Shown here in pieces: positions 33,350 to 48,648 of a stretch of DNA of 64,000 nucleotides (within the stretch, counting starts at the first letter, position 1; each line of letters begins with the position of its first letter). Source of the stretch: Candidatus Woesearchaeota archaeon (lineage in GTDB: Archaea > Nanobdellota > Nanobdellia > Woesearchaeales > WJKR01). Both the position numbers and the translations under genes were made by a program. The notes under the pieces were generated by a model. That model was not told where the DNA came from and did no database searches. It saw only the letters and a program-made list of their open reading frames with translations. The stretch is taken from the NCBI GenBank assembly GCA_016927245.1, contig JAFGNA010000011.1, positions 29,330-93,329 of the forward strand, read 5' to 3'.

Positions 33350-34153
33350 TCATGCCTTGACCTTGATCTTATCCCATGCTAGGTCGAACAGTTGCTCGAG
33401 CGCTTGCGCGAAGAGCTGCGTGTTCACCCAGACGCCGACGTCGTAGGAGGGGTGTACTTCTGTGTCGTCGGCGAGCATGAACAGGACTTGCGTGGTGTCG
33501 ATGATCATGAACCGCGCGTTGAGTCCTTTGAGGTCTTTGACTTCCGCGAACTCGCTGATGGCCTTCGCTCCTTCCATGTTCTTCTCGGTCAGGGGTGCGG
33601 CGACCCGTACTTGCACGCCTCTTTCCGCGGCTTTCTTGAGCTGGCGGAGCAGGGCGTCTCCTTTGCGGTTGAGGCCTCCTTCGCTCGTGATGAGGGTGAT
33701 GCGTTCCTCTGCTTCTTTTATCATGAGGTTGAGGTGTTCGTAGATGTTGTTCTGGCCTTTCACGCTGCCGGTGAGGTCTTCGGGCTCGACGGTGTCGATG
33801 CCGTTGTTGTGTAGTTGTGTTAGTTCTTTGAGGACGTCGCTGCCGTATAGCTCGTCCATGGTTTTCAGCGTGGCCGCTGTTTCTTCGTGTACGCGTTTCT
33901 TTACTCGTTCCACGACTTCTTCTGGGGGCACGGCTATGTACTTGATGGGCTTGCCGAGCTTCATGATGATGAATCCTTTCTTCTCCAATGATTCTAGGAT
34001 GTCGTAGGATCTTGATCGTGGCACGTTGCTGATGTCTGAGAGTTCGCCTGCTGTCGCGACGCCTCGTGAGAGCAGCGCAGTCCATATCTTCGCTTCGTAG
34101 GTGTTGAGGCCGAAGTCTTTTATTTTTTTGAGGAAGTCTTGTTGTACAATCAT
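33350..34153 (-). CDS. trmB: TrmB-family transcriptional regulator (paralog 1)
   Basis: N-terminal wHTH LNTYEAKIWTALLSRGVATAGELSDISNVPRSRSYDILESLEKKGF plus TrmB C-terminal domain. About 65% identical to the paralog at 60852-61661. Confidence 0.85.
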   Translation of the reverse strand: MIVQQDFLKKIKDFGLNTYEAKIWTALLSRGVATAGELSDISNVPRSRSYDILESLEKKGFIIMKLGKPIKYIAVPPEEVVERVKKRVHEETAATLKTMDELYGSDVLKELTQLHNNGIDTVEPEDLTGSVKGQNNIYEHLNLMIKEAEERITLITSEGGLNRKGDALLRQLKKAAERGVQVRVAAPLTEKNMEGAKAISEFAEVKDLKGLNARFMIIDTTQVLFMLADDTEVHPSYDVGVWVNTQLFAQALEQLFDLAWDKIKVKA

Positions 34154-34656
34154 CTTGTGAGAGGAATACTCGAGGTTTTATATAGTTTTCTAAATGTTAC
34201 TATTATAAAGTAAATACAATTTTGTGAGTTATCTCCAACCCAATCATTTCCTGTAGAAATTGTGAAAGGAAGGGTGGAGGTTGGGTGTACTCGTCAATGA
34301 TTTCTTGTTTTTCAGTGCTGTGAATAAACCAAATATAAAGAATATTTTCAAAAATATATTATTATAATTATATTTTATAAAAAAATAATCTATATAGAAA
34401 TTAATTGGTGGTGGTAAGAAACCACCGTCGAGAAAAGAAATACCTACACAACACACCTCTAACCAACACAAACCCCACATCACACACCAACACTCCACAC
34501 GAATAAAAGGGGTGAGGCTTATCGTTTCCAATACAACCATCCAGAAACCACACATCCCCATACCACATAACAAGAGTGCAAAAAACTTAAAAACAACCCT
34601 CTTTTCCTTTGGAAACGTATTGTAGGGGTGCACAAGTGGTCAACAACAACCTAACG
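34154..34656. promoter_or_regulatory. oriC: Putative chromosomal replication origin (oriC) upstream of orc1/cdc6
   Basis: About 500-bp non-coding AT-rich region. ORB-like elements: TTTCCTGTAGAAA...GGGTGG (~34247-34285), CTCCACACGAATAAAAGGGGTG (~34493-34515) and TTCCTTTGGAAACgtattgtaGGGGT (~34605-34629). 80-bp >90% AT DUE (~34330-34410). Hairpin GGTGGT..ACCACC (~34408-34426). A/C-only tract (~34441-34500). Confidence 0.6.
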
Positions 34657-35850
34657 ATGTTCTTCGAGAAGTTCCTCACCAAGGAATCACTCTTCAAAGA
34701 CAAGAAAGTACTCCAATCAACCTATATCCCAGACGAAATAAACCACCGAGACGAGCAAATAAACACCATCGCACAGATACTCGCACCAGCGCTCCGCAAA
34801 GAGAAACCAAGCAACCTCTTCATCTACGGCAAGACCGGCACAGGAAAGACCCTAAGCATCCGCTACACCGCAGAGCAGATGGAACAAGTCGCCAAGCAGC
34901 AAGAAGTCCCACTCTCAGTGTTCTACCTCAACTGCAAGCTCAAGAAGATAGCAGACACCGAGTACCGCCTCATCGCCGAGCTCGCGAGATTCTTCGGGAA
35001 AGCAGTCCCCCCAACAGGCCTCCCCACAGACGAAGTCTACAACATCTTCTTTAAAGCGCTCGACAGCGAAGAACGAGTCGTCCTCCTCATCCTCGACGAG
35101 ATAGACCAACTCGTCAAGAAAGCAGGTGACGAGATAATCTACAACCTCACCCGCATCAACGCCGAGCTCAAAAGGAGCCACGTCAGCATCATCGGCATCA
35201 GCAACGACCTCATGTTCGCGAACAACATCGACCCACGAGTCAAGTCATCGCTATCAGAGGAAGAGATAGTCTTCCCCCCATACAACGCCCTCCAGATACA
35301 AGACATCCTGCACAAGCGGTCATCCCAAGCGTTCAAGGACAGCATCATCACCGAAGGCGTCATCGCCAAGTGCGCCGCCTACGCGGCGAGAGAGCACGGA
35401 GACGCGAGACGAGCTCTCGAACTCCTCCGCGTAGCAGGAGAGCTAGCAGAAAGGAAAGGAGACACCACCATCATGATAACGCATATCGACGACGCGGAGG
35501 AGAAGATAGAACGCGACCGCATCCTCGACATCGTCAAGACCCAGCCAAAACAATTCCAAGCGACGCTCTACCCCATCCTGATGACCCACCAGAAGAAGAA
35601 AGGGCTCGTCTACACAGGAGAGATATACGACGTCTACAAGGACCTCTGCGAGAAGATAGGGCTACGGCCCCTCACCCAAAGGAGGATCAGCGACATCGTC
35701 GCAGAGCTCGACATGCTCGGCATCATCAACGCCAAAGTCATCAGCAAGGGACGATTCGGCAGGACGCGCGAGATAGCGCTCGCCATCCCCTCACAAGTAG
35801 AGCCGAAGATAAGGAAGATACTCGAGGAAGACCTCGGGGTCGCAGCATGA
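34657..35850 (+). CDS. orc1: Orc1/Cdc6 replication initiator
   Basis: AAA+ Walker A GKTGTGKT, Walker B LILDEID, sensor and a C-terminal winged helix. ATG at 34657; the track TTG start at 34609 lies inside the ORB. Confidence 0.9.
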   Translation: MFFEKFLTKESLFKDKKVLQSTYIPDEINHRDEQINTIAQILAPALRKEKPSNLFIYGKTGTGKTLSIRYTAEQMEQVAKQQEVPLSVFYLNCKLKKIADTEYRLIAELARFFGKAVPPTGLPTDEVYNIFFKALDSEERVVLLILDEIDQLVKKAGDEIIYNLTRINAELKRSHVSIIGISNDLMFANNIDPRVKSSLSEEEIVFPPYNALQIQDILHKRSSQAFKDSIITEGVIAKCAAYAAREHGDARRALELLRVAGELAERKGDTTIMITHIDDAEEKIERDRILDIVKTQPKQFQATLYPILMTHQKKKGLVYTGEIYDVYKDLCEKIGLRPLTQRRISDIVAELDMLGIINAKVISKGRFGRTREIALAIPSQVEPKIRKILEEDLGVAA

Positions 35851-35863
35851 GCACCAAACCCAA

Positions 35864-37390
35864 ATGACCCTGACAGGGTATGCGGGAGGACAGGTGGCAA
35901 GCCACATGGTATCAGTACAAGAGCTCCTGGACAACGGCGTCCTCATCGACCCAGGACTCGTAGAGCAGGGAATACCAGGAACAGTCCTCGGGCGGATACT
36001 CGAGAAGTACGGCGAAGACCTCGTAGTCATAGAGAAAGACATGGTCGAAGAATGCGCCGACCCCCAAGAGACCGGCGGCGCGAACGTCGAGGTCATCTGG
36101 TCCTACGATCAAGAGCCGAAGAAGCGCACCTACGACGACTTCGTAAAGCTCCTCCAAACACGTTTCCGTGAGCTTGAACACCTGCTCAAGACGCGGCAAG
36201 AACTCGCCTCGACGACCTCCATCAACAGGATAAAAGCAAAGCAGGACCGCGACCACGTCAGCGTCATCGCCATGGTCAAAGACAAGTCCGAGACCGCGAA
36301 CAACAACATCATGCTCGTCCTAGAAGACTTCTCAGGAACCATCAAAGCGCTCATATCATGCAAGAAACAGGAATTGTTCGACCTCGCCAAGGACGTGCAA
36401 CTCGACGAGGTCCTCGGCTTCACCGGCATGGGAGCGGGCGACATCATCTTCGTGGACAACATCATCTTCCCCGACATACCACTCACCAAGGAGCTCAAGA
36501 AGGCACCAAGGGAAGAGTACGCGGCGTTCATAGGCGACCCGCACTTCGGCAGCAAGGCTTTCCTCAAGGACGACTTCGAGCGCATGCTCCTCTGGCTACA
36601 AGGGAAAGCAGGGAACGACGAGCAGAGAGCCCTCGCCGCGAAGGTGAGATACGTGTTCATCACCGGCGACCTCGTCGAAGGAGTAGGCGTCTACCCCGGA
36701 CAAGAAAACGACCTCACCATCAAGGACATCAAGGAGCAATACGCAGAAGCCGCCGAGTACCTCTCACGCATACCACCCCGCATGCGCATCATCCTCTTCA
36801 CCGGCAACCACGACGCCGGCCGCCTCTCAGAGCCGCAAGAGCCCATCATGCGCGAGTACGCCCCGCAGCTGTACCACCACCCGAACATCACGATCACGAG
36901 CAACCCATCCATGGTGAACATCGGCGCCGCCGACGGCTTCCCAGGCCTCGACTGCCTCCTCTACCACGGCGGCAGCTTCATCTACTACGCAGACACTATC
37001 CCCAGCATCAGGGCGGCAGGAGGCCAGAAACGAGTCGATCTCATCATGCGCTACCTCCTGCAACGACGACACCTAGCCCCGACGCACAACGCGGCCATGA
37101 CCATCCCCACTACTGACAAGGACTGGCTGCTCATCGACCGAGTCCCAGACCTGTTCATCAGCGGCCACATCCACCGCGTGAGCGTCAGCAACTACAGGAA
37201 CGTGACGTGCATCAACGCAGGTTGCTGGACAGAGATAACTGAGGACCAGGTGAAGCGAGGCCTGGAGCCGCAGCCGAGCAAGCTCATCATCATCGGCCTG
37301 CACAACAGGCAAGTAAAATTGATGAACTTCAAAAAGGAACGATCAGCGCCCGCTAAGAGGACGAGCGATGAAGAACAGGAGGATCCCTGA
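35864..37390 (+). CDS. dp1: DNA polymerase II (PolD) small subunit DP1
   Basis: Calcineurin-like phosphoesterase motifs GDPHFG, GNHD, GHIH. OB-fold N-terminal region. 508 aa. Confidence 0.9.
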   Translation: MTLTGYAGGQVASHMVSVQELLDNGVLIDPGLVEQGIPGTVLGRILEKYGEDLVVIEKDMVEECADPQETGGANVEVIWSYDQEPKKRTYDDFVKLLQTRFRELEHLLKTRQELASTTSINRIKAKQDRDHVSVIAMVKDKSETANNNIMLVLEDFSGTIKALISCKKQELFDLAKDVQLDEVLGFTGMGAGDIIFVDNIIFPDIPLTKELKKAPREEYAAFIGDPHFGSKAFLKDDFERMLLWLQGKAGNDEQRALAAKVRYVFITGDLVEGVGVYPGQENDLTIKDIKEQYAEAAEYLSRIPPRMRIILFTGNHDAGRLSEPQEPIMREYAPQLYHHPNITITSNPSMVNIGAADGFPGLDCLLYHGGSFIYYADTIPSIRAAGGQKRVDLIMRYLLQRRHLAPTHNAAMTIPTTDKDWLLIDRVPDLFISGHIHRVSVSNYRNVTCINAGCWTEITEDQVKRGLEPQPSKLIIIGLHNRQVKLMNFKKERSAPAKRTSDEEQEDP

Positions 37391-40300
37391 TGGCCAAGGA
37401 TGGCATGGCGTGCAGCCCCGCCATCAAGGCGTACTTCGACGATATCGAACGCAAGACGAAGAAAGCCTTCGAGGCGGCCACGGAGGCACGCCAACAAGGA
37501 TACGACCCTGAACGATTCGTAGAGGTCAAGCTCGCCAAGAACATGGCTGAACGAGTAGTAGGCATCATCAGCGTCGCGGCCCCGCAGATCATCGGCAGCG
37601 GCGTGACCGAGCGCATCATCGAGCTCGAGAAGGAGTACGGCCTCCAGGACTGGCGAGTCGCGTTCGTCATCGCGCTCGAGATAGCGCGGCAACGACACTG
37701 CTCCTTCAAGGACGAGCTCGAGGCGATAGAGGTAGGCGTCAGGACAGGGTTCGCGTACGTCACGGTGGGCGTGGTCTCCTCCCCGCTAGAAGGGCTGACG
37801 AGCATCGACATCAAGCGTCGCAGGGACGGCCGAGGAAGCTATTTCTGCCTGAACTACGCAGGCCCCATCAGGAACGCTGGGGGGACCGCCGCCGCAGTCT
37901 CAGTCCTCATCGCTGACTACGTTCGCAAGCACCTAGGCTACGCAAAGTACGACCCTGATGAGAAAGAGGTGCAGCGCTGCTACGCCGAGCTCGAGGACTA
38001 CCACCAATACGTCGCCAACCTGCAATACTACCCGTTCAAGGAGGAGTCCGAGTTCCTCATGCGGCACATCCCCGTAGAGATAGCCGGCGACCCGTCTGAG
38101 AAGCGAGAGGTGTCCAACGTCGGCGTCAAGGACCTCCCGCGCGTGCAGACCAACCACCTCCGCAGCGGCTACTGCCTCATCCACTCATCATGCATCCCGC
38201 TCAAGGCTCCCAAGCTATGGAAGCAGATCTCCAAGTGGAAGGAAGAGATGGGCATGGAGGACTGGGAATTCCTCGAAGAGCACATCAAGCTGCAGAAGGA
38301 GCTCAAGGCGAAGCAGGCAGAGCAGACAGCCCAGCACCAAGAGAGCGACGCGAAGATCAAGCCTGACGGCACCTTCGTCGCAGACCTCGTCGGCGGCCGA
38401 CCAGTACTCGGACACCCGATGAGGAGCGGCGGCTTCCGCCTCCGGTACGGCAGGAGCAGGGCTTCCGGCTACTCAGGACAAGCGACACACCCGGCAACCC
38501 TCGCCATCCTGAACGGGCTCATCGCCACGGGCACCCAGCTCAAAGTGGAACGGCCAGGGAAAGCCGCGGCGTTCACCACGTGCGACACCCTCATGGGGCC
38601 CATCGTCAAACTCGATGACGGCAGCGTGGTGTCGTTGCGGGACGAGGCGACCGCTCGTGAACTCTCCCCGCGCGTCAAGGAGATACTCTACCTCGGCGAC
38701 GCCCTCATCAACTATGGCGATTTCTTCGACCGCGCCCACGTCCTCGTCCCCCCAGGCTACGTCGAGGAGTTCTGGGCGCTCGAGGCCGAGGAGTCGTTGC
38801 GAGAGCACGGCGATGAGCCAGACGCGCGGCTACGGGAAGCGATCAATAACCCGCTCTCCACCAAGGTGTCTTTCTCAGAGGCAAAGTCATGGTCCTCTTC
38901 TTACGGCTTGCCGTTGCACCCCTCGCACCTGTTCTTTTACGCCGAGGTCGACAAGGAGCAGTTGCTCGCCCTCGCGTCCTGGCTTGGCAAGGCGTCGTTC
39001 ATGCTCGGAGGCTCCCCCAGCGTATCGCTCCCGCTCCCTCACCCTGGGAAGCGCACGCTCGAGCTGCTCGGCGTGCCGCACCGCGTCGAGGATGGCCTCG
39101 CAGTCGTGTCCGGCGACGACGCCCTCGCGCTCACGGCCACGTTGCGGGTGAGGAGTAAGGAGGAGGCGTCATCGCTCGAGTCGTTCGTCAAGGACGCGGA
39201 GGGCTCAGCGCTCAGCATCGTGCAGGAGCGAGCATCGTTCATCATCAAGGACAAGTCAGGATTGTTCATAGGGGCGCGCATGGGACGGCCGGAGAAGGCG
39301 AAGATGCGTAAGATGACAGGCAGCCCGCACACGTTGTTCCCCGTCGGCGCTGAGGGCGGCCGGCTCCGCAGCTTCCAGTCAGCGTTGGAGAAGGGGCTCG
39401 TCACCGCGGAGTTCCCCGTGTTCCTCTGCCCTGAGTGCGGTCATCGCTCCCCTTTCTCTGTGTGCGACAAGTGCGGCGCTCTCGGCGTTCGCCAGAAGGT
39501 TCATCCGCGAACTGAGGATCTCGTGCCGCCCGGGGCTGCTGAGGAATCAGGGATCGAGTTCCTTGACTTCAAGCGGTGGGGCGTGCCTATCAGGGACCTC
39601 TTCGACTATTGCTTGCGGCGCATGGGCACGAAGGTGTACCCTGACTTGGTCAAGGGCGTTCGCGGCACGGTAGGCAAGGACCACACCCCCGAGCACCTCC
39701 TCAAAGGCATCTTGCGGGCGAAGCACGACGTCTACGTGAACAAGGACGGCACGGTGCGGTACGACGCGTCAGAGGTCGCCCTGACGCACTTCAAACCGAA
39801 AGAGGTCGGGACGCCTGTCGCTCGTCTGCGAGAGCTCGGCTACACCAAGGATAATAAGGGGGAGGAGTTGCGGCGCGATGACCAGGTGCTTGAGCTCCGC
39901 GCCCAGGACGTCGTCCTGCCCGCCTGCCCTGACAGCCCTGATGAGGGGTCTGACAAGGTGCTCGTGAGCATAGCGAAGTTCCTGGACGAGCTGCTCGTCA
40001 CGTTGTACGGGCTCCCGCCGTTCTATAATGTCTCTTCTCGCGATGACCTCGTCGGCCACATCGTCGTGGGGTTGGCGCCGCACACCAGCGCAGGGGTGGT
40101 GGGGCGTATCATCGGCTTCAGCAAGACGCAAGGGTTCTTCGCGCACCCGTTGTACCACGCCGCTATGCGACGGGATTGCGATGGTGACGAGTCGTGCTTC
40201 TTCCTCCTCATGGACGCGTTCATGAACTTCTCCCGCCGCTTCATGTCAACGTCTCGCGGTAGCACCATGGACGCTCCTTTGGTGTTGACTACCTTGCTCA

Positions 40301-40932
40301 ACCCGGCAGAGGTGGATGACATGGCGTTCAAAATGGACATCGCTGATCATTACCCGCTCGAGTTCTACCGTGCGTGCCAGGAGTACAAGATGCCGTGGGA
40401 TGTTTCTGTCAGGAAGATCGGCGACGTCCTCTTCACCCCCGCGCAGTTCGAGGGTATGCGCTTCACGCACGGCACTGATGACATCAACGCAGGGGTGTTG
40501 TGCAGCGCGTACAAGCTCTTGCCGTCCATGGGGGAGAAGATTGCCGCTCAGATGGACTTGGCGGAGAAGCTGCGCGCGGTGGACACCGCTGATGTCGCTC
40601 GCTTGGTCATCGAGAAGCACTTCATCAGGGATACCAAGGGCAATCTGCGCAAGTTCTCATTGCAGCAGTTCCGGTGCGTGCAGTGCAACGAGAAGTTCAG
40701 GCGTCCTCCTCTGAACGGCCGGTGCTCCTCGTGCGGCGGCAAGGTCATCTTCACGATTTCTGAAGGATCAGTCACCAAGTACTTGGAGCCGTCGTTATTG
40801 CTCGCGGAGAAGTACGACCTGGACGCGTATTTGCGGCAGACGCTGGAGCTGACCAGGGTGCGTGTCGAGTCGTACTTCGGCAAGGAGAAGGAGAAGCAGA
40901 CAGGGTTAGCGGGCTGGCTGGGCGGCGGGTGA
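37390..40932 (+). CDS. dp2: DNA polymerase II (PolD) large subunit DP2
   Basis: 1180 aa. Conserved DP2 regions including Zn-binding CPECG..CDKCG and the catalytic region. No intein (canonical length). Confidence 0.9.
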   Translation: MAKDGMACSPAIKAYFDDIERKTKKAFEAATEARQQGYDPERFVEVKLAKNMAERVVGIISVAAPQIIGSGVTERIIELEKEYGLQDWRVAFVIALEIARQRHCSFKDELEAIEVGVRTGFAYVTVGVVSSPLEGLTSIDIKRRRDGRGSYFCLNYAGPIRNAGGTAAAVSVLIADYVRKHLGYAKYDPDEKEVQRCYAELEDYHQYVANLQYYPFKEESEFLMRHIPVEIAGDPSEKREVSNVGVKDLPRVQTNHLRSGYCLIHSSCIPLKAPKLWKQISKWKEEMGMEDWEFLEEHIKLQKELKAKQAEQTAQHQESDAKIKPDGTFVADLVGGRPVLGHPMRSGGFRLRYGRSRASGYSGQATHPATLAILNGLIATGTQLKVERPGKAAAFTTCDTLMGPIVKLDDGSVVSLRDEATARELSPRVKEILYLGDALINYGDFFDRAHVLVPPGYVEEFWALEAEESLREHGDEPDARLREAINNPLSTKVSFSEAKSWSSSYGLPLHPSHLFFYAEVDKEQLLALASWLGKASFMLGGSPSVSLPLPHPGKRTLELLGVPHRVEDGLAVVSGDDALALTATLRVRSKEEASSLESFVKDAEGSALSIVQERASFIIKDKSGLFIGARMGRPEKAKMRKMTGSPHTLFPVGAEGGRLRSFQSALEKGLVTAEFPVFLCPECGHRSPFSVCDKCGALGVRQKVHPRTEDLVPPGAAEESGIEFLDFKRWGVPIRDLFDYCLRRMGTKVYPDLVKGVRGTVGKDHTPEHLLKGILRAKHDVYVNKDGTVRYDASEVALTHFKPKEVGTPVARLRELGYTKDNKGEELRRDDQVLELRAQDVVLPACPDSPDEGSDKVLVSIAKFLDELLVTLYGLPPFYNVSSRDDLVGHIVVGLAPHTSAGVVGRIIGFSKTQGFFAHPLYHAAMRRDCDGDESCFFLLMDAFMNFSRRFMSTSRGSTMDAPLVLTTLLNPAEVDDMAFKMDIADHYPLEFYRACQEYKMPWDVSVRKIGDVLFTPAQFEGMRFTHGTDDINAGVLCSAYKLLPSMGEKIAAQMDLAEKLRAVDTADVARLVIEKHFIRDTKGNLRKFSLQQFRCVQCNEKFRRPPLNGRCSSCGGKVIFTISEGSVTKYLEPSLLLAEKYDLDAYLRQTLELTRVRVESYFGKEKEKQTGLAGWLGGG

Positions 40933-40984: not shown

Positions 40985-41120
40985 CGATTTTCGTAGAAAA
41001 TCAGACGGAGCTGCAAGCGAAGTGACCAAGGTCGTGTTTAGCTCTTCCGAAGCCGCAGGCTGAGAGGACGCAGTCCGTGGGTCGAGGAGAACTTTTGTTC
41101 GACGACGAAGTCACTGTTCC
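40985..41120. repeat. Non-coding repeat element, copy A of a ~150-nt family
   Basis: ttcgtagaaaatcagacggagctgcaagcgaag...cgtgggtcgaggagaacttttgttcgacgacgaag is about 70-75% similar to copies at 41893-42045 and 42048-42090. Confidence 0.4.
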
Positions 41121-41213
41121 TATAACAAAAAAGAGAGAGTTGCCGCCGCTCATTCGTACCTTTTTAAACCAAAAACCAGAAGGTTTTTATAGTTATACAA
41201 ACTTATATACCTT

Positions 41214-41492
41214 ATGCCGCAAGCACTAGCAAAAAAAGAAATTCTACATTATCCTCGATTAGACACTGTTCTAATGGTTGAGGAGCTCATCAAAGAACAC
41301 TCAGGCGAGTACAAAAAAAAGGCACTTTGGGAGTCACTTCCAAAAGGAATGATGTATCAAACATTCTGTGTGGTCTTTGATTACTTGCTAGATTCAGGAA
41401 AAATCGCTCTAGATAAAGAAGGACACATCGCATGGATCTGGAATCCAGAACTCGTAAAAAAATACTTGTCAAAACCAGAACTTTGGGTGTGA
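41214..41492 (+). CDS. Putative antitoxin partner (92 aa, possible winged-helix)
   Basis: Small ORF ending 4 nt before the RelE-like gene start. Low GC. No recognisable RelB/Phd motif. Confidence 0.3.
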   Translation: MPQALAKKEILHYPRLDTVLMVEELIKEHSGEYKKKALWESLPKGMMYQTFCVVFDYLLDSGKIALDKEGHIAWIWNPELVKKYLSKPELWV

Positions 41493-41495
41493 ACC

Positions 41496-41825
41496 ATGGA
41501 GTCAAAGGTAACATTTGGAGATATAAAGCTCAAAGAAGCATATACTAAATTGAAGACTTCAAAAACTGAAGATCAAATGCTTTACAAATGGATAACAAGA
41601 GCAATAGATGATCTAAAAGTAAATGCCTTTTGTGGAACGCAAGTTCCAAAGAGAGTCATCCCAAAAATCTACACTGAGAAATACGAGACGGACAATCTTT
41701 GGAAATATGACTTGCCAAAAGGATGGAGACTCATCTACACTATAGCAAATGGCGAAGTACTTATCATTTCAATAATTCTAGAATGGATGACTCACAAAGA
41801 CTACGAAAAAAGATTCAAATACTAA
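41496..41825 (+). CDS. relE: RelE/ParE-family toxin (mRNA interferase)
   Basis: C-terminal KGWRLIYTIANGEVLIISIILEWMTHKDYEKRF matches the archaeal aRelE pattern (GDYRVIYSV....V.IL.L.PRG) and overall fold pattern. Confidence 0.5.
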   Translation: MESKVTFGDIKLKEAYTKLKTSKTEDQMLYKWITRAIDDLKVNAFCGTQVPKRVIPKIYTEKYETDNLWKYDLPKGWRLIYTIANGEVLIISIILEWMTHKDYEKRFKY

Positions 41826-41892
41826 AAAAGGCGGCAACTCTCTCAAAAACAATAAATAACAGTGATTGAGCTATACATCGGGCTTAAGGAGA

Positions 41893-42095
41893 GTTTCGAC
41901 TGAAAGGAGAAATTCGGGCGGAGTCTGCAAGACGAAGCTCTTTAAGCCCTGTTAAGTCGCCCCGAGCAATTTATTGCGAGAGCCTGCAAGGCGTGGGTCG
42001 GAGTAAAACTTGTTTTACGTAGAAGTAAAATTTGAGCTCTTAATATTCATTCGACTGAAGGGAGTCAAAATGTGCGGAGCACTAGTGGAAGCTTA
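41893..42095. repeat. Non-coding repeat element, copies B1 (full) and B2 (partial) in tandem; possible small structured RNA
   Basis: TTCGACTGAA(A/G)GGAG..GCGGAG repeated about 155 nt apart. B1 contains ggagtctgcaagacgaag and gagcctgcaaggcgtgggtcggag, matching copy A. About 45% GC. Confidence 0.4.
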
Positions 42096-42650
42096 TTAAA
42101 ATAATGAATCCTTAAAATAATCTTTGTAGTATATTGATCTTGAATTGCTAATTAATTTGTCATTATTATAATTAATTATTTCTAATGCTAGTTCTACATC
42201 ATAAAAATTTCTTTCAAAATATATTTCATTATTCTTGCTCCTATCATCAAAATATCCTAACCGTATTTGTTTTTGTTTTTCAATATCCTTTTCTCCTTTG
42301 AAAAGTTTAACTTGTATTTTTTGTTCAAGTGTTATTGGACTATAGAAACCTTCAAATACTAATTTTTTAATAGGTACTGTTTTTTTCGCAGGTACAACAT
42401 CTAAAATATATTTAGTTATCATACCACATTGAATATTTTGGACTGTAATCATATCTCCATAGATATCATCAAAACGTTTACCATCTTGTCCAATTGTTTC
42501 CCCATTATGATCTAGTGAGACTATCTTGATTGATTGGTGAACTATTTGAGATTCTGTAAGTATGTGTGCTATTTTAAATTCTTCAGTAACTATTAAATCT
42601 GAAATGCTTTTGTAAACTCGTTTCTTTGAATCCATATTATTGGAATTCAA
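42096..42650 (-). CDS. Hypothetical protein, about 30% GC, apparently foreign origin
   Basis: 184 aa. Strongly AT-biased codons unlike host genes. No recognisable motifs. Confidence 0.4.
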   Translation of the reverse strand: MNSNNMDSKKRVYKSISDLIVTEEFKIAHILTESQIVHQSIKIVSLDHNGETIGQDGKRFDDIYGDMITVQNIQCGMITKYILDVVPAKKTVPIKKLVFEGFYSPITLEQKIQVKLFKGEKDIEKQKQIRLGYFDDRSKNNEIYFERNFYDVELALEIINYNNDKLISNSRSIYYKDYFKDSLF

Positions 42651-42848
42651 TTTATCTATAAAAAGTTTTCCGCAGCTTTCACTTTTTGTTTCTTTTTTTT
42701 AAAAAGAAAGAGAGCTCAAATTTTATTCGACTTAACACGTATTTAGCGACCTTTTGGGAGCATAAAACGTGTTATGATTGCCGCGTAGCGGATGCTTTCC
42801 GGCTTCTTAGCTGTCATCGTTTTGAATTACTCTCTTTTTTGTTCCTTC

Positions 42849-43658
42849 ATGGATTATATGGCTCGTTTGCAGGAGGAGTGTGATCTTCGTGGTTTTAGCC
42901 GTCAGACTAAGAAGACTTATGCGTGTGTCGTCTCTTCTTTCCTCTGTTTTGTTGAGAAAAGAGGTTTAACCCTTGACAAGGTGGGTGTTAAGTCGTATTT
43001 GCTCTCCTTGCAGGTCTCTGCTAACGCCGCTCGCCTCTATCACGCCGCGCTCAAGTTCTTCTTCGCCAGCGTCCTCGATGACCCTTTCTCTGACGTGGAA
43101 GTCCCTAAGAAGCGGAAGCCTAAGATCCTTCCCAAGGTCCTCTCTAAGGAGCAGATCAAGAAAATCATTGATTCCACGGAGAACCTCAAGCATCGCCTTG
43201 TCATCAAGCTCCTCTACTCGTCTGGTTTGCGCCTCCAAGAACTCATCAATCTCAAAAGGGCGCATGTCGACTTCGACAGGGGTCTTATCAACGTCGTCCA
43301 AGGCAAGGGCAAGAAGGATCGGGTCACCCTCCTCTCAAATGAACTCCGGTTGGACCTCCTCAAATACTACAGCTTAACAACTTTCCAGACGCCGTACGTG
43401 TTCGAAGGACGAAAAGGCAAGTACAGCAAGAAGTCCGTGCAGAAGGTCTTGGAGAAAGCGGGGAAAGCCATCGATGCAGAGCTCACCCCGCACATGCTCC
43501 GCCATTCCTTCGCCACGCACCTCTTGGAGGCTGGCGTCGACATCCGTTTCATACAGAAACTTTTAGGTCACGCTGATGTGAAGACGACCGAGGTCTACGC
43601 GTACGTCTCCAATCAGTCGCTCGCCGCTATCGAGAACCCGTTGGATCGCTTGGCTTAG
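42849..43658 (+). CDS. Tyrosine recombinase/integrase (XerA/XerC/D-like)
   Basis: C-terminal catalytic HMLRHSFATHLLEAGVDIRFIQKLLGHADVKTTEVYAYV (H..R, H, Y) and N-terminal SAM-like domain. About 50% GC with T-ending codons (gat, cgt, ctt, ttt) unlike host C-ending usage. Likely start at 42849. Confidence 0.8.
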   Translation: MDYMARLQEECDLRGFSRQTKKTYACVVSSFLCFVEKRGLTLDKVGVKSYLLSLQVSANAARLYHAALKFFFASVLDDPFSDVEVPKKRKPKILPKVLSKEQIKKIIDSTENLKHRLVIKLLYSSGLRLQELINLKRAHVDFDRGLINVVQGKGKKDRVTLLSNELRLDLLKYYSLTTFQTPYVFEGRKGKYSKKSVQKVLEKAGKAIDAELTPHMLRHSFATHLLEAGVDIRFIQKLLGHADVKTTEVYAYVSNQSLAAIENPLDRLA

Positions 43659-44068
43659 ATCTTGCTCGTGAACGTGTAGCGGGCGCCGCACGCTTGGCAT
43701 TTGAAGTAGTAGATGTCGCCTTCTTTTGACAGTTTCGTGTCGGGCTTGTGGCATTCCCTGCAGATGACGAACTCGTCCGCGTAGCTTTGCAGCTTCTCGT
43801 TGATCTTGCTGGCGGGGATCTTGCTGCCGAAGATGATGAGTTGGTTGACTTGTTCTGCGGTGGTGGCGAGCTCTCGGGAGAGGTATTTGAGGAGGTGCTT
43901 TATGGGTCTGTGCAGGGCGTCCGCTATCTGGTGCAGGTTGCTGATGATGGTCTTGGTGCCTTGCTGGTGGCCTTTGACTTTGGGCAGTTGGAACCGTTCT
44001 TCAGCGTGGTTGATCTCGGGCAGGGCTTCTTTTGCCTGTTTGAGGAGTTGGTGGTAATCGGGAGGCAT
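43655..44068 (-). CDS. eif2b: Translation initiation factor aIF2 beta subunit
   Basis: C-terminal zinc ribbon CRECHKPDT...KCQACGA and N-terminal helix region typical of aIF2-beta. Confidence 0.85.
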   Translation of the reverse strand: MPPDYHQLLKQAKEALPEINHAEERFQLPKVKGHQQGTKTIISNLHQIADALHRPIKHLLKYLSRELATTAEQVNQLIIFGSKIPASKINEKLQSYADEFVICRECHKPDTKLSKEGDIYYFKCQACGARYTFTSKI

Positions 44069-44149: not shown

Positions 44150-44223
44150 GGGCTCTTAGCTCAGCCTGGTAGAGCGCAACGTTCGCAACGTTGAGGCCGC
44201 GGGTTCGAATCCCGCAGAGTCCA
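44150..44223 (+). tRNA. tRNA-Ala: tRNA-Ala (anticodon CGC), no encoded CCA
   Basis: Cloverleaf derived by hand. Acceptor GGGCUCU/AGAGUCC with G3:U70 Ala identity pair. D-arm GCUC-AGCCUGGUA-GAGC. Anticodon stem CAACG/CGUUG, loop UUCGCAA. T-arm GCGGG-UUCGAAU-CCCGC. Discriminator A. Upstream TATA TTTTTTAAA at about -30. Confidence 0.85.
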
Positions 44224-44262: not shown

Positions 44263-44596
44263 CGTCGGGTTGTTTGGTGGTCAATGATTTTGTTTCACTA
44301 TAGTATTTACTATATTGCAAATAAATAATTTGAATTAATTTCATTAAGGAAAATTATTCTCTCGTACTCACAACCTATAAATACGAGTTATGCAACCAAG
44401 ATCAATGATGGACAGCAGGCACGCTTGGATGACGTACGTCATTGTCCGAGACTGCGTGCTGTTCGCCAAGCGATCCGCGTGCTAGGGCAACACCAAGAAC
44501 CGGTGGTGCACGAGCGCGCGGACAACAAGGTTCTCCGAAGCTCTGCACCGCCAGCGACGGCGCTGTCCCGCACACGGACCGCATGAAGCAACAGCC

Positions 44597-45004
44597 ATGG
44601 AGGTGGTGAAATTGTACAGCTGTGTGGAATGCGGGGAGGTCATCACCAACCCCATCAGCGAGCAGCGCCTCGCCCTCGAGTTCAGGGCGTGGCTGGCAGA
44701 GATGGACGGCGCTTTGGAAGAGCGGTTCTCCGAAGAGTACGTCTCGCGCGCCGACTTCATCGACGAAGAATGCGTCGGCCAGGAGTGCATCCTGACCAAG
44801 CGGAAGATGGATGTCTGCCCGTATTGCGTCGCCGCACAGCTCATCGACTGGCTGCACAGCGCCACGTTCGACCCGGTCGTCCTGGATGCAGCCCTGGATT
44901 TCTTCGTCGCCCGCCAGGATGAGCCGTACGTCCTGCAGCGGTTGCGGGCGAAAGGATGTGGCGTGAGGATCATGCTGACGCGAACCCAGCGGCTCATGGC
45001 ATGA
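44597..45004 (+). CDS. Hypothetical CxxC...CxxC zinc-ribbon protein
   Basis: YSCVECGEV...DVCPYCVAAQ. GC3-rich host-like codons. The overlapping 297-aa minus-strand ORF (44402-45295) is judged antisense noise. Confidence 0.45.
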   Translation: MEVVKLYSCVECGEVITNPISEQRLALEFRAWLAEMDGALEERFSEEYVSRADFIDEECVGQECILTKRKMDVCPYCVAAQLIDWLHSATFDPVVLDAALDFFVARQDEPYVLQRLRAKGCGVRIMLTRTQRLMA

Positions 45005-45050
45005 CTGTTTTTCCTTTTTTTTCCATCTGCATTCGGTTCTTTTCCAGGCA

Positions 45051-45102
45051 TCCCCTCCACAGCGCCTCTCCCCCGCAAATCTCCACAGGAAATGAAAGGG
45101 TG
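45051..45102. promoter_or_regulatory. ORB-like element(s) between the Zn-ribbon gene and tbp
   Basis: CTCCACAGGAAATGAAAGGGTG (~45081-45102) closely matches the oriC element CTCCACACGAATAAAAGGGGTG. A second CTCCACAG half lies at ~45054. An AT-rich stretch follows. Confidence 0.4.
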
Positions 45103-45239
45103 AAAAAACTATACTGTTGTATTTTTTACCAGATATTTTTAAACTTCGCTCGACGAGAAGCGCCCAACTAGTCTTTTCCATGAGAAACGGAGGGGGTTCC
45201 GCCTCCGCAACACACATTTCCTCATATCTAGTTTGATTT

Positions 45240-45342
45240 AAAAAAAGATTTATAAAGGGGAAGTGTTTTCCCCTTAAAAGAGACCCGCAGTTCATCTGGT
45301 GTGGGGGATGAAACCAAGAAGGTCTTCCGAAGGTGATACCCT
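45240..45342 (+). promoter_or_regulatory. tbp promoter: TATA TTTATAAA preceded by an A-rich BRE region, with downstream palindrome GGGGAAgtgtTTTCCCC
   Basis: aaaaaaagatttataaaggggaagtgttttcccc lies about 60-95 nt upstream of the tbp ATG. Confidence 0.5.
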
Positions 45343-45900
45343 ATGGCAGCAACCAAGGAACCCAAACCGCAAGACATCCAAGTGGTAAACATCGTCGTCT
45401 CCACCAGCCTAGGACACGACATCCCCTTGGAGAAGATGGCAGCCACCCTGTCCAACACTGAGTACAACCCAGAACAATTCCCAGGACTGGTCATCAGGAT
45501 AAAAGACCCCAAGACCTCCGCCCTAGTCTTCAGCAGCGGCAACGTCGTGTGCACCGGTGCGCGCAGCATTCCCAAAGTAGAAGAGAGCATCCAGAAGATC
45601 ATCGAATCCCTGGAGAAGATCGGCATCACCATCACCATCAAGCCGAAAATCAACATCCAGAACATCGTCGCCTCAGGCAACATCGGCACAGACCTCAACC
45701 TGAACACCCTGGCGATGAAGCTGGACAACACGGAATACGAGCCGGAACAATTCCCAGGACTCGTCCTCAAGCTGAAAGAAGCAAAAGCGACGTTCCTGCT
45801 CTTCAGCAACGGCAAGGTCGTGTGCACCGGTACCAAATCGGAAGCCATGGTACACGAGGCACTGGACAAGCTGGTGGAAAAGCTTAAGACCGTGATGTGA
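45343..45900 (+). CDS. tbp: TATA-box binding protein
   Basis: Two TBP repeats: QNIVASGNIGTDLNL, EYEPEQFPGLVLKL, KVVCTGTKS. 185 aa. Downstream hairpin plus T-run terminator at about 45903-45935. Confidence 0.95.
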   Translation: MAATKEPKPQDIQVVNIVVSTSLGHDIPLEKMAATLSNTEYNPEQFPGLVIRIKDPKTSALVFSSGNVVCTGARSIPKVEESIQKIIESLEKIGITITIKPKINIQNIVASGNIGTDLNLNTLAMKLDNTEYEPEQFPGLVLKLKEAKATFLLFSNGKVVCTGTKSEAMVHEALDKLVEKLKTVM

Positions 45901-45974
45901 TTCCCTCCTGCATGCCAGGAAGGGCTTTTTTATACGTGATAAACCTCTTGATGAAGTAGTGCGAACCAGGTGGT

Positions 45975-48002
45975 GTGATGGACGCGACAGCGCAAGTGAC
46001 GAAGTTCAGCGAGTTCTTCGAGAGCGTATGCTACGAGGACCTAGTCAAGGCGGTCAGCAAGGGGAACAAGCACATCATCATCCCCTTCAACGAGCTCTCC
46101 CAATTCCACGTCGAACTCGCAGAAGACCTCCTCGACGACCCGGAGAACGTCCTCCTGGCGGCCAGGCACACCATCGAGCAGATGGACCTCGGCGGCGACA
46201 CCAAAGGATTCGAGGTACGATTCTCCAACCTGCCGCAAACCACGCATATCAAGGTCAGAGACATCAGGAGCAAGCACATCGGCAAGTTCCTCCAGATGGA
46301 AGGCATCGTCCGCCAGAAATCAGACGTCCGCCCGCAAGTCACCTCTGCCCGTTTCGAATGCCCGAGCTGCGGCAACATCATCCCAGTCCTCCAGCTCGAC
46401 CAGAAATTCAAGGAGCCGCACACGTGCGCGTGCGGCAGGAAAGGTCAGTTCCGGCTCATCCACAAGGAGCTCGTCGACGCCCAGAAGATAGTCCTAGAAG
46501 AGGCACCAGAGGACATGGAAGGAGGAGAGCAGCCTAAAAGGCTGAACATCTTCCTCAAGAACGACCTCGTTTCCCCCATAACCGACAAGAAGACCAACCC
46601 GGGCAGCAAGGTCCGCCTCACAGGAATCGTCAAGGAAATCCCCATCATCCTCGCCACGGGCGGCAAGTCCATCAGGTTCGACCTAGTGTGTGAGAGCAAC
46701 CATGTCGAGCCCGTGCAGGAAGAGTTCACCAACATCGTCCTGAAGCCGGAAGAGGAGGAGCGCATCAAGGAGCTAAGCAAGGACCCCAACGTCTTCGACA
46801 TCCTCGCCAAGTCATTAGCGCCGACCATCTACGGCCACGAGCGCATCAAGGAAGCCCTACTCCTGCAATTGTTCGCCGGCGTGAAGAAGACCAGCGACGA
46901 CGGCGTCTCGCGAAGAGGAGACATCCACATCCTGCTCATCGGGGACCCGGGCGCGGGGAAAAGCCAGTTGGTGCGCCGCATGAGCGTCGTGGCGCCGAAG
47001 AGCCGGTTCATCAGCGGCAAGGGCGCCTCCGGCGCCGGCATGACCGCCTCCGTCGTGAAGGACGAGTTCCTCCGTGGCTGGGCGCTGGAAGCAGGGGCGT
47101 TAGTGCTCGCCAACAAGGGCATCGCCTGCATCGACGAGATGGACAAGATGAGCCCCGAGGACACCAGTGCCATGCACGAGGCGCTCGAACAACAAACAGT
47201 CACCATCAGCAAGGCGAACATCCAAGCGACGTTGCGGTGCGAGACGACCGTCCTCGCAGCCGCCAACCCGAAGCTCGGCCGCTTCGACCCGTACGACCTG
47301 ATAGCCAAGCAGATCGAGATGCCCTCAACGCTCATCAACCGCTTCGACCTCATATTCCCCATGAAGGACCTCCCAGACCCTGAGCGCGACGACCAAATGG
47401 CCTCATTCATCCTCAACCTCCATCGTGGCGAAGCAGGAGAGAAGCAGGAAGGATTGCTCGAGACCGACTTCGTCAGGAAATACATCGCGTACGCCAAGCA
47501 GCACATCAGACCAGAGCTCACGGACGACGCGCTAGCAGAGATCAAGAAGTACTACGTGCAGATGCGCAACCAAGGCACCAACGAGGGAGCGATCTCCGCC
47601 ATCCCCATCTCCGCGCGCCAGCTCGAGGCATTGGTGCGTCTGGCAGAGGCGAGCGCGAAGTCCCGCCTCTCCCCCAAGGTGACCAAGAAGGACGCGCAGC
47701 GAAGCGTCGAGCTCGTCCACTACTGCCTCCGCCAGATAGGCATGGACCCTGATACGGGAAGGATGGACATCGACCGCATCACCACCGGCATCACCGCCTC
47801 GCAACGGAGCAACATCGCCATCGTCAAGGAAGTCATCTCGGAACTGGAGAGCGCGCTCGGCAAGATGATACCTGTGGATGACGTCGTGCGCGAGGCAGAG
47901 ATCAAAGGCGTGTCACAGGACAAGACGACGGAGATCGTGGAGCGGTTGAAGCGGAGCGGCGACCTCTTCAGCCCGAAGAACGGGTTCATCAGCAAGATAT
48001 GA
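45975..48002 (+). CDS. mcm: MCM replicative helicase
   Basis: Zn finger CPSCG..C.C. Walker A GDPGAGKS, Walker B CIDEMDKM, arginine finger SRFDL. C-terminal wH. 675 aa, no intein. Confidence 0.95.
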   Translation: MMDATAQVTKFSEFFESVCYEDLVKAVSKGNKHIIIPFNELSQFHVELAEDLLDDPENVLLAARHTIEQMDLGGDTKGFEVRFSNLPQTTHIKVRDIRSKHIGKFLQMEGIVRQKSDVRPQVTSARFECPSCGNIIPVLQLDQKFKEPHTCACGRKGQFRLIHKELVDAQKIVLEEAPEDMEGGEQPKRLNIFLKNDLVSPITDKKTNPGSKVRLTGIVKEIPIILATGGKSIRFDLVCESNHVEPVQEEFTNIVLKPEEEERIKELSKDPNVFDILAKSLAPTIYGHERIKEALLLQLFAGVKKTSDDGVSRRGDIHILLIGDPGAGKSQLVRRMSVVAPKSRFISGKGASGAGMTASVVKDEFLRGWALEAGALVLANKGIACIDEMDKMSPEDTSAMHEALEQQTVTISKANIQATLRCETTVLAAANPKLGRFDPYDLIAKQIEMPSTLINRFDLIFPMKDLPDPERDDQMASFILNLHRGEAGEKQEGLLETDFVRKYIAYAKQHIRPELTDDALAEIKKYYVQMRNQGTNEGAISAIPISARQLEALVRLAEASAKSRLSPKVTKKDAQRSVELVHYCLRQIGMDPDTGRMDIDRITTGITASQRSNIAIVKEVISELESALGKMIPVDDVVREAEIKGVSQDKTTEIVERLKRSGDLFSPKNGFISKI

Positions 48003-48012
48003 GGTTCGTGCG

Positions 48013-48648
48013 ATGGCAGACGAGCGACCGGTGAAGCGGCAGACCGCGCATCCCTGCTCCGCGAGCGTCATCGCCCAAGGGACGTACGTGCGCCACGAAG
48101 GATGGGAGCCCAACTTCCTCGCCACCCCCCTCGGCGCGCTCTCACGGGTGAGCATGGCAGGGGTGATCGTGCAGCAAGAGCATTCCCAGGCGTCATTGGA
48201 CGACGGCACCGGCACCGTGGTGCTGCGATCGTTCGATGACGACCTCTCCTCATTCTCCGTGGGCGACACGGTCCTCGTCGTCGGGAGGCCGCGCGTGTAC
48301 GCCGAGCAGACTTACATCCTCATAGAGATTATCAGGCGTTTGGGCTCCCGAGCGTGGCTCAAGTACCACGCGGAGCGGCGGGAGCTGCTCCAACGCCACA
48401 TCCCGCCTGTGCCCGTTTCCGAGGCGCCTTCGCGCCCGGCGCCCCCCGCGCTGCCAGTCCAGGGACGGGCGCCCAGCGCCGCTCCTTCACTCATCACCGT
48501 CATCCGCGAGCTTGACCGGGGAGAAGGCGCCCCGACCGACGAGGTGCTGCGTAAGGCAGGTCCTGGCGCTGAGGAGAAGCTGCGCTCCTTGATAGCGGAG
48601 GGCGAGGTGTTCGAGCTCCGCGCCGGCAAGGTCAAGGTGTTGGAGTAA
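48013..48648 (+). CDS. OB-fold protein with C-terminal winged-helix (RPA32-like architecture), immediately downstream of mcm
   Basis: Central beta-rich region GTGTVVLRSFDD...VGDTVLVVGRPRVY suggests an OB fold. C-terminus LITVIRELDRGEGAPTDEVLRKAG...EGEVFELRAGKVKVLE is wH-like. Family assignment tentative. Confidence 0.4.
   Translation: MADERPVKRQTAHPCSASVIAQGTYVRHEGWEPNFLATPLGALSRVSMAGVIVQQEHSQASLDDGTGTVVLRSFDDDLSSFSVGDTVLVVGRPRVYAEQTYILIEIIRRLGSRAWLKYHAERRELLQRHIPPVPVSEAPSRPAPPALPVQGRAPSAAPSLITVIRELDRGEGAPTDEVLRKAGPGAEEKLRSLIAEGEVFELRAGKVKVLE

Follow-up and report, generated by a model that had tools for sequence, protein, structure and literature searches.

What is an origin recognition box (ORB) doing in front of the genes for the TATA-binding protein (tbp) and the replicative helicase (mcm), 10.6 kb from the replication origin? 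The question is raised by 64,000 nucleotides of a Woesearchaeota (DPANN) genome—Candidatus Woesearchaeota archaeon, GenBank assembly GCA_016927245.1, contig JAFGNA010000011.1, positions 29,330 to 93,329 of the forward strand—a stretch that we refer to as the window, and within which positions are counted. An earlier note, made from these letters alone, had drawn attention to a 22-mer upstream of tbp and offered two explanations: a second origin, or regulation of tbp and mcm by the initiator Orc1. Comparison with related genomes favors the latter. We consider it probable that the element, here called ORB1, belongs to a conserved module that is not an origin, and serves as a promoter-linked, predicted Orc1 site regulating tbp, mcm and possibly the RPA32-like gene that follows them. 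The boxes of this module carry the motif of the origin (oriC) boxes, are conserved and co-oriented with the gene, are phased to the TATA box, and follow mcm where tbp does not precede it; Orc1 would be expected to bind them and so to affect transcription.

The 22-mer, CTCCACAGGAAATGAAAGGGTG, lies at 45081-45102 on the plus strand, exactly where it had been placed. Even when as many as three mismatches are tolerated, it has a single copy in the window, and none turned up in 100 shuffles. The classical ORB core that it was said to contain, TCCACAGGAAA, is there without a mismatch, again once in the window; the only copies with one mismatch are at 34247 and 34603, within two of the three oriC boxes. 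Its likeness to the oriC element at 34493-34514, put at 18 of 22 positions, comes to 17 of 22 ungapped and rises to 19 identities once each sequence is given a single gap. Scored against a matrix built from 58 boxes upstream of orc1 in 80 related genome loci (consensus TTTCCACAGGAAATAAAGGGGTG), ORB1 reaches 31.0 bits and is the top ORB match in the window, where the three oriC boxes themselves score 28.0, 22.6, and 20.1 bits. Its TCCA, GAA, and GGGTG are invariant across eight close relatives. The distances given for the neighboring genes hold as well: 241 nt separate the end of ORB1 from the tbp start codon (ATG, 45343), and about 875 nt separate it from mcm.

ORB1 does not stand alone. As its partner, the earlier note had proposed an CTCCACAG half-site, which lies 26 nt upstream at 45055-45062 (+). 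This 8-mer occurs four times in the window, compared with 3.2 expected, and its column is unconserved in relatives; we therefore reject it as a partner box and regard it as most likely a chance occurrence. The real partner, ORB2, had been overlooked. The dyads of the two boxes, TCTCCACAGGAAA in ORB1 and TTTCCATGAGAAA in ORB2, both follow the pattern TTCCA-N2-3-GGAAA, and each is succeeded by an asymmetric G-track, GGGTG and GGGGGT, respectively, at the same offset as in the oriC boxes. Their scores of 31.0 and 15.3 bits, set against 20-28 bits at oriC, mark them as the same motif as that of the organism's own orc1-adjacent origin. ORB2 of the window aligns with ORB2 of L001, L002, L161, L162, L169, and L170, its TCCATGAGAAAC variant forms the distal ORB in L031, and it has a tail of its own, GG(G/A)GG(C/T)ATAT. 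Further upstream lies a decayed remnant, ORB0, whose TCCA at 45022 precedes that of ORB1 by exactly 60 nt; it aligns with the intact ORB0 (TTCCAnnGGAAA) that is found at the same 60-nt spacing in L001, L002, L161, and L162.

ORB1 is also extended on its G-track side. A (G/C)TATAC box at the same offset as in the window recurs in L001, L002, L010, L016, L019, L031, L032, L039, L118, L162, L164, L169, L170, and L171, and seven of the 26 copies of GTATACTG in 2.15 Mb occupy precisely this position. We considered whether the GTATAC/CTATAC box might be a common feature of oriC, but none was seen beside oriC boxes and it appears specific to ORB1. A run of six T follows the (G/C)TATACTG that succeeds the ORB1 G-track. 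In the spacer between ORB1 and ORB2 lies a further motif, identical in L001, whose CTCGACGAGA recurs in L169 and L170, with the related CGTCGAGAAGC in L019 and GACGTCGAGAGG in L053; motifs resembling CTCGAC recur downstream of the tbp TATA box in L021, L023, L027, and L056. Fine footprinting used eight sequences whose MCM is 73-100% identical, the relatives (73-85%) coming from a protein search, since the relatives from the metagenome scan held no MCM above 68% identity. In this alignment intergenic conservation is confined to the ORBs, the CTATAC box, CTCGACGAGA, the transcription factor B recognition element (BRE) with its TATA box, a second TATA-like box, and the Shine-Dalgarno sequence.

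Might these boxes be read by something other than Orc1? Another winged-helix or helix-turn-helix protein—for example, the TrmB-family regulator encoded beside oriC or the product of the upstream Zn-ribbon gene—could bind them, or they could be conserved for a reason unrelated to protein, such as an RNA; taken together, we judge such explanations very improbable. The extension of ORB1, N6 followed by (G/C)TATACTG, has no counterpart at oriC and ORB2 has its own tail, so further factors may take part, and for the CTATAC extension specific to ORB1 a different binder is plausible. It is unlikely for the core, where dyad and asymmetric G-track match a matrix derived purely from oriC, with up to 35 bits. 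As to an RNA, a search of 44900-45420 against Rfam gave no family match down to E=1, and the strongest BRE/TATA consensus lies downstream of the boxes, which are therefore probably outside the tbp leader transcript. The hairpin CGGAGG...CCTCCG (45189-45206), which had prompted the idea of a small RNA or a structured leader in the stretch from ORB1 to tbp, is made up of the ORB2 G-track and non-conserved sequence, and this idea was rejected.

Orientation, spacing, and linkage to mcm

The case for a promoter-linked Orc1 site rests on how the boxes are distributed among relatives. The survey drew on GTDB genomes, on 80 JGI metagenome contigs fetched with MCM, and on ENA, Logan, and NCBI contigs found through MCM homologues. 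Across 1.56 Mb (80 genome loci and the window), 280 matches score at least 12 bits, compared with 13 in a shuffle: 185 lie upstream of orc1, 51 upstream of tbp, and 44 elsewhere. The two genes together account for 236, and 49 of the 51 in front of tbp are on the tbp strand. A wider count took in the 78 loci that have 300 nt or more of upstream DNA and a TBP identity of 65% or higher. In 61 of them an ORB lies on the same strand within 450 nt of tbp; over all 78, 93 boxes are on the tbp strand and five on the opposite one, while shuffles of the first 68 loci lead one to expect 0.2 same-strand matches. The pattern is repeated in three independent data sources, including all 11 contigs from ENA, Logan, and NCBI, and boxes are present in 18/18 loci with TBP identity of at least 85%, in 21/24 at 80-85%, and in 19/25 at 75-80%.

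Position as well as strand is tied to the promoter. The promoter consensus AAAAGCATTTATAAA is kept in nearly all loci; measured from the TCCA of the proximal box, its TTTATAAA lies at one of two distances, 56-58 nt (17 loci) or 71-73 nt (19 loci). ORB2 of the window is separated by 60 nt from the first TATA-like box and by 72 nt from the main one, the latter a spacing class counted in 15 loci. Because the 72-nt class, to which the window belongs, has an extra TTTAAAAA box at about 58-60 nt, the distance from ORB to first TATA-like box is nearly constant. Both position (36 loci) and orientation (93 boxes against five) are fixed relative to the core promoter. A distal ORB is present in 21 two-ORB loci, and the distance between the boxes themselves falls into two classes: ORB1 and ORB2 are 83-88 nt apart in 14 loci and 95-97 nt apart in five, the window having 95. 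A second TTTATAAA or TTTAAA box recurs 23-26 nt downstream of the first in most loci. The tbp promoter of the window and of most related loci (e.g., L009, L016, and L022) has two to three TATA-like boxes in tandem—TTTAAAAA about 12 nt upstream of the main TTTATAAA, and a downstream TTTATAAA or TTAAAAG box roughly at the expected transcription start—a layout suggesting that tbp is under the control of its own product.

Which gene do the boxes serve? The tbp-mcm pair may lie on either side of oriC, 1-16 kb away, and be co-directional with it or head-on; in every case the boxes go with the gene. Four contigs (L029, L045, L053, and L081) have an mcm without tbp in front of it. There, an ORB lies on the mcm strand 45-49 nt upstream of the mcm TATA box, and no ORB accompanies the separate tbp genes of L029 and L045. 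The link is thus with the promoter that drives mcm: in these contigs the motif accompanies its target gene through a change of gene order. In many relatives the gap between tbp and mcm is only about 8 nt, which implies an operon, and the RPA32-like gene comes after mcm in most related loci.

These observations also bear on the possibility that the boxes are a satellite Orc1 cluster of the origin region rather than a promoter element, acting as an initiator reservoir or titration site or as an anchor for a higher-order Orc1 complex that would span the replication island. There is a precedent in Pyrococcus, where a second cluster of ORBs and mini-ORBs a few kb from oriC is bound by Cdc6/Orc1 in vivo and in vitro (PMC1904270), and the distance of the tbp-mcm module from oriC is no more than about 1-16 kb in all the long contigs that were examined. 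A search for tbp-mcm far from oriC, in eight contigs taken with 10-kb flanks, turned up no such case: orc1 is within about 8-11 kb in seven (86 kb to 1.07 Mb; L162-L168); in the eighth, L161, tbp-mcm is at the contig end and no orc1 lies in the 10 kb downstream. A satellite would have no need for a fixed distance of 56-58 or 71-73 nt to TATA, for strict co-orientation, or for a move to the mcm promoter, and it is distance and orientation relative to oriC that vary freely. We see a small but real chance that the boxes are such a satellite.

A third recurrent place for ORBs was encountered in more distant Woesearchaeota, with no counterpart in the window: boxes of 29-32 bits at L044:3301, L052:403, L062:2208, and L078:108. 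They lie within, or at the end of, homologous coiled-coil open reading frames (ORFs), on the gene strand, and short tandem repeats (AATC, GTGAGT, and GGTGTCGAAGG types) follow at once. These ORFs adjoin a conserved MPIVGFNF... gene of some 140 aa.

Second origin or initiator-responsive promoter

Archaeal origins usually lie beside replication genes, and the ORBs in front of tbp are full-length and as good as those of oriC. It could be argued, then, that the module is a second origin, weaker or dormant, or a helicase-loading site, where Orc1 bound to the two boxes, ORB1 and ORB2, would place MCM on the AT-rich spacer beside mcm. Multiple origins do exist in some archaea, namely Sulfolobus and haloarchaea (PMC3607249, PMC3936714). 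The AT-rich run that had been reported behind the box is real but modest: 82% AT over the 40 nt from 45103, falling to 64% over 100 nt, and some ten other places in the window are equally AT-rich over 60 nt. It compares poorly with the 137-nt unwinding region at oriC, which is 95-100% AT over 40-60 nt.

The layout of origins in this lineage also speaks against a second origin. It was compared in 50 loci with sufficient upstream sequence. Relative to the AT-richest 80 nt, all 45 boxes on the left side belong to the minus strand and 61 of the 69 on the right side to the plus strand; an inverted pair, its TCCA ends facing the AT-rich stretch, is accordingly present in 40 of the 50. The oriC of the window shows this inverted layout. 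The tbp module has direct repeats only, with no inverted ORB pair in the window at that place, and it has no extended AT-rich unwinding element. Its neighbors are the Zn-ribbon ORF and tbp, with orc1 9.2 kb away rather than adjacent, and the orientation and spacing of its boxes follow gene and TATA, not oriC, from which the site is only 10.6 kb distant. A second origin at the tbp module is therefore unlikely. Neither GC nor AT skew helps here, since across the 64 kb both track gene strand and do not discriminate an origin at the 10-kb scale.

The inverted layout turns up at another place in one relative. At L037:14283-14380 an inverted ORB pair (25 and 28 bits) encloses some 97 nt that are almost entirely AT. 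The pair is located between eIF2beta and a homologue of trmB, downstream of the genes for DNA polymerase D (PolD) rather than upstream of orc1, and resembles an origin that is either relocated or additional in this relative. More generally, an ORB match alone does not suffice to annotate extra archaeal origins; orientation, pairing, and an unwinding region are needed too.

How would an Orc1 site at the tbp promoter work? In the order of the module, the decayed ORB0 is followed 60 nt on by ORB1 and 95 nt further by ORB2, and then by BRE/TATA, so that the G-track side of the boxes faces the tbp promoter. Orc1, presumably the product of the orc1/cdc6 gene in the window, would bind each box as at oriC, contacting the TTCCAnnGGAA dyad through its winged-helix domain and the G-track through its AAA+ side, with the initiator-specific motif (ISM). 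Such contacts, winged-helix domain on the ORB dyad and ISM on the G-track, have been described (PMC9738581), as has a bend of about 35 degrees in DNA bound by Orc1 (PMC3089459). Bending at the boxes may alter assembly of the pre-initiation complex at BRE/TATA, and synthesis of helicase, TBP, and the RPA32-like protein could thereby be coupled to the amount or the nucleotide state of the initiator. Archaeal activators typically sit upstream of BRE, and for this reason we lean weakly toward activation. The same genomes offer a precedent for an ORB at a promoter, namely the orc1-proximal box, which abuts or overlaps the TATA box or start region of orc1 and in the window lies between a TATA-like box and the start codon. 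In Nanobdellota, ORC1 is a single-copy core gene (bioRxiv 10.64898/2026.05.13.725050). It is possible, and we put it forward tentatively, that in a large clade of Woesearchaeales this single Orc1/Cdc6 doubles as a direct transcription factor for the MCM/RPA32-like/TBP operon, acting through TATA-phased ORBs.

Several points weigh against this proposal. About 35-50 bp separate the end of ORB2 from the first TATA-like box, a gap longer than for the archaeal activators known to us, and the tbp promoter is already near consensus and so may need no activation. The 77-nt gap between tbp and mcm in the window (45901-45977) contains an imperfect hairpin (CCCTCCTG...CAGGAAGGG), then CTTTTTTATACG, with a run of six T (45926-45931) and a TTTTTATA box. 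The hairpin could be a terminator or attenuator and the gap could also supply an internal TATA box for mcm; mcm may thus have a promoter of its own, with read-through from tbp not assured, and partial termination combined with an internal mcm promoter is possible. Boxes are also missing from distant relatives, being present in 3/11 loci at 65-75% TBP identity and in 0/7 below 65%, so the circuit would be dispensable or replaced in those lineages. Because the module lies about 1-16 kb from oriC in all long contigs, an architectural role related to the origin is not separable from a role at the promoter. Finally, the organisms are uncultivated, and the part assigned to Orc1 at the boxes is a prediction from sequence.

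Gene neighborhood

The closest match to the PolD large subunit of the window is 74% identical, and its MCM is 100% identical to an NCBI protein labeled Candidatus Woesearchaeota archaeon. The module sits in an island of replication genes, which runs in the order trmB, oriC, orc1-dp1-dp2, then eIF2beta, tRNA-Ala, the Zn-ribbon gene, the ORBs, and tbp-mcm-rpa32-like. For mcm the probable start is the ATG at 45978, preceded by GGTGGT, with the GTG at 45975 a mechanical ORF start.

Features of the replication island and of the ORB-tbp module (positions in the window)
Feature	Position	Strand	Remarks
trmB-family regulator	33350-34153	-	beside oriC
oriC	34237-34615		ORBs 34237-34259 (-), 34492-34514 (+), 34593-34615 (-); AT-rich unwinding region 34293-34429
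orc1/cdc6	34636-35850	+	NCBIfam ORC1-type DNA replication protein equivalog, 540.8 bits (cutoff 501); Pfam Cdc6_C, Cdc6_lid
PolD small subunit (dp1)	35864-37390	+	
PolD large subunit (dp2)	37390-40932	+	
Low-GC insert	~41000-43660		with XerA-like recombinase
eIF2beta	43655-44068	-	
tRNA-Ala(CGC)	44150-44223	+	
Zn-ribbon ORF	44597-45004	+	135 aa, Cys-rich (CxxC...CxxC)
ORB0	45020-45042	+	decayed remnant TTTCCATCTGCAT...; 7/11 core positions kept in the window
ORB1	45080-45102	+	full-length origin recognition box; dyad TCCACAGGA, G-track GGGTG
ORB1 extension	45109-45129	+	CTATACTG box exactly 6 nt past GGGTG, then GTATTTTTTAC
Spacer motif	45149-45161	+	CTCGACGAGAAGC, between ORB1 and ORB2, ~15 nt before ORB2
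ORB2	45175-45197	+	promoter-proximal, TTTCCATGAGAAACGGAGGGGGT; 15.3 bits; same strand as ORB1, 95 nt downstream
tbp core promoter	45237-45256	+	TATA-like TTTAAAAAAA 45237-45246; main BRE/TATA AAAGATTTATAAA, TATA 45249-45256
Second TATA-like box	45274-45280	+	TTAAAAG, 25 nt downstream of main TATA
tbp Shine-Dalgarno	45332-45337		GGTGAT
tbp	45343-45900	+	TATA-binding protein, 185 aa; Pfam TBP E=1e-60; NCBIfam TBP
mcm	45978-48002	+	replicative helicase; Pfam MCM, MCM_OB, MCM_lid, MCM_WH_arc
RPA32-like gene	48013-48648	+	oligonucleotide/oligosaccharide-binding (OB)-fold protein, third gene of the cluster; phmmer to RPA32 chains 9f26_C, 8oej_B, E ~1e-7

Several neighbors deserve comment in their own right. 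The Zn-ribbon ORF gave no significant match in Pfam or NCBIfam, and one of its homologues has a faint match to zf-C4pol; it is kept right before the ORB-tbp module in many relatives (L001, L002, L009, L010, L017, L019, L022, L030, L163, and L167). The trmB-family gene beside oriC, divergent from orc1, is conserved across the clade in most related loci, and in L087 and L137 a trmB homologue instead diverges from the ORB-tbp module. Between the tRNA gene and the Zn-ribbon ORF, 118 nt at 44269-44386 are up to 87% AT and contain CACTATAGTATTTACTATATTG, similar to the CTATAC box behind ORB1.

The insert between the PolD large subunit and eIF2beta has a GC content of 36-43%, against about 59%, and in the closest relative, L001, the genes that flank it are only about 160 nt apart, so it looks recently acquired. 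It encodes a XerA-like tyrosine recombinase (42792-43658; NCBIfam XerA 218.9 bits, cutoff 220) and small ORFs without a family match. Inteins (Intein_splicing, LAGLIDADG) interrupt MCM in several relatives and the PolD large subunit in one (P0009, P0012, P0084, P0089-P0091, P0097, L128, L146, and L148; the PolD large subunit in L166). The genes of the window itself are without inteins.

Comparison with known systems

The nearest relatives of these boxes are the ORBs of archaeal origins. Like Pyrococcus ORB1/ORB2 (CTCCAGTGGAAATGAAACTCTGGGGG; sequences in PMC1904270) and the boxes of Sulfolobus and Aeropyrum, they consist of an TTCCAnnGGAAA dyad and then a G-track, which here lies 5 nt closer to the dyad than in Pyrococcus. 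Unlike oriC boxes, they are off-origin, form direct repeats co-oriented with the gene, and are phased to TATA rather than inverted around an unwinding region. The dp1 cluster of Thermococcales (Matsunaga et al. 2007, PMC1904270) likewise lies outside the origin, at a distance of a few kb from oriC within a replication island, and is conserved across related genomes. That cluster is bound by Cdc6/Orc1 in Pyrococcus and lies in a coding region with no known relation to a promoter, whereas the boxes described here are intergenic and keep a fixed offset to TATA.

No cluster like that of Pyrococcus was found in the dp1 gene of the window, where 35864-37390 holds no matrix match of at least 12 bits. 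A weak match (12-15 bits), TTTG(T/C)CCAGGAAATCATGATG, which the window lacks, does recur in dp1 of three relatives (L003:16657, L006:6836, and L163:18334), on the gene strand at least in L163. It recalls the Pyrococcus cluster but probably reflects coding constraint.

Another comparison is with the ORB at the orc1/cdc6 promoter, presumably a site of autoregulation, which in the window is the box at 34593-34615 and in relatives abuts TTTATAAA. It overlaps the core promoter or start, a position of the repressor type, and is part of the origin; the tbp and mcm boxes are off-origin and stand 35-50 bp upstream of TATA.

An Orc1-family protein acting at promoters rather than origins is known from Sulfolobales, where the Orc1/Cdc6 paralogue Orc1-2 is a global transcription regulator of the DNA-damage response and acts through the promoter motif ANTTTC, the DNA-damage-responsive element (DDRE; PMC9738581, PMC12490963). 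Orc1-2 is a non-initiator paralogue that lacks the ORB-contacting arginines and uses a different, 6-bp motif. The Woesearchaeales boxes are canonical ORBs and ORC1 is single-copy in the lineage, so that here the initiator itself would be the regulator. Orc1-2 is, to our knowledge, the only documented transcription regulator of the Orc1 family, and little is known of how expression of the replication machinery is matched to initiation in archaea.

Initiators at promoters are thus already known, from DnaA and from the non-initiator Orc1-2, as are extra-origin ORB clusters, from Pyrococcus dp1. Full-text literature searches returned no description of ORBs at mcm or tbp promoters, nor an analysis of Woesearchaeota origins. 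The module, seen in dozens of genomes of uncultivated DPANN archaea, may add a concrete case in which the initiator itself is predicted to work on a promoter through canonical origin boxes.

A further parallel is bacterial. DnaA boxes occur in promoters—those of dnaA, in autoregulation, and of nrdAB, among others—and at the titration locus datA. By analogy, the logic would be the same, an origin motif reused away from the origin to regulate replication genes or to buffer the initiator, although DnaA has an unrelated DNA-binding domain, recognizes a different motif, and works with the bacterial transcription machinery. If our reading is correct, the ORBs in front of tbp and mcm would link both the supply of helicase and the global capacity for transcription to the initiator's state, an arrangement that in archaea would correspond to the DnaA regulon or to the control of MCM genes by E2F.

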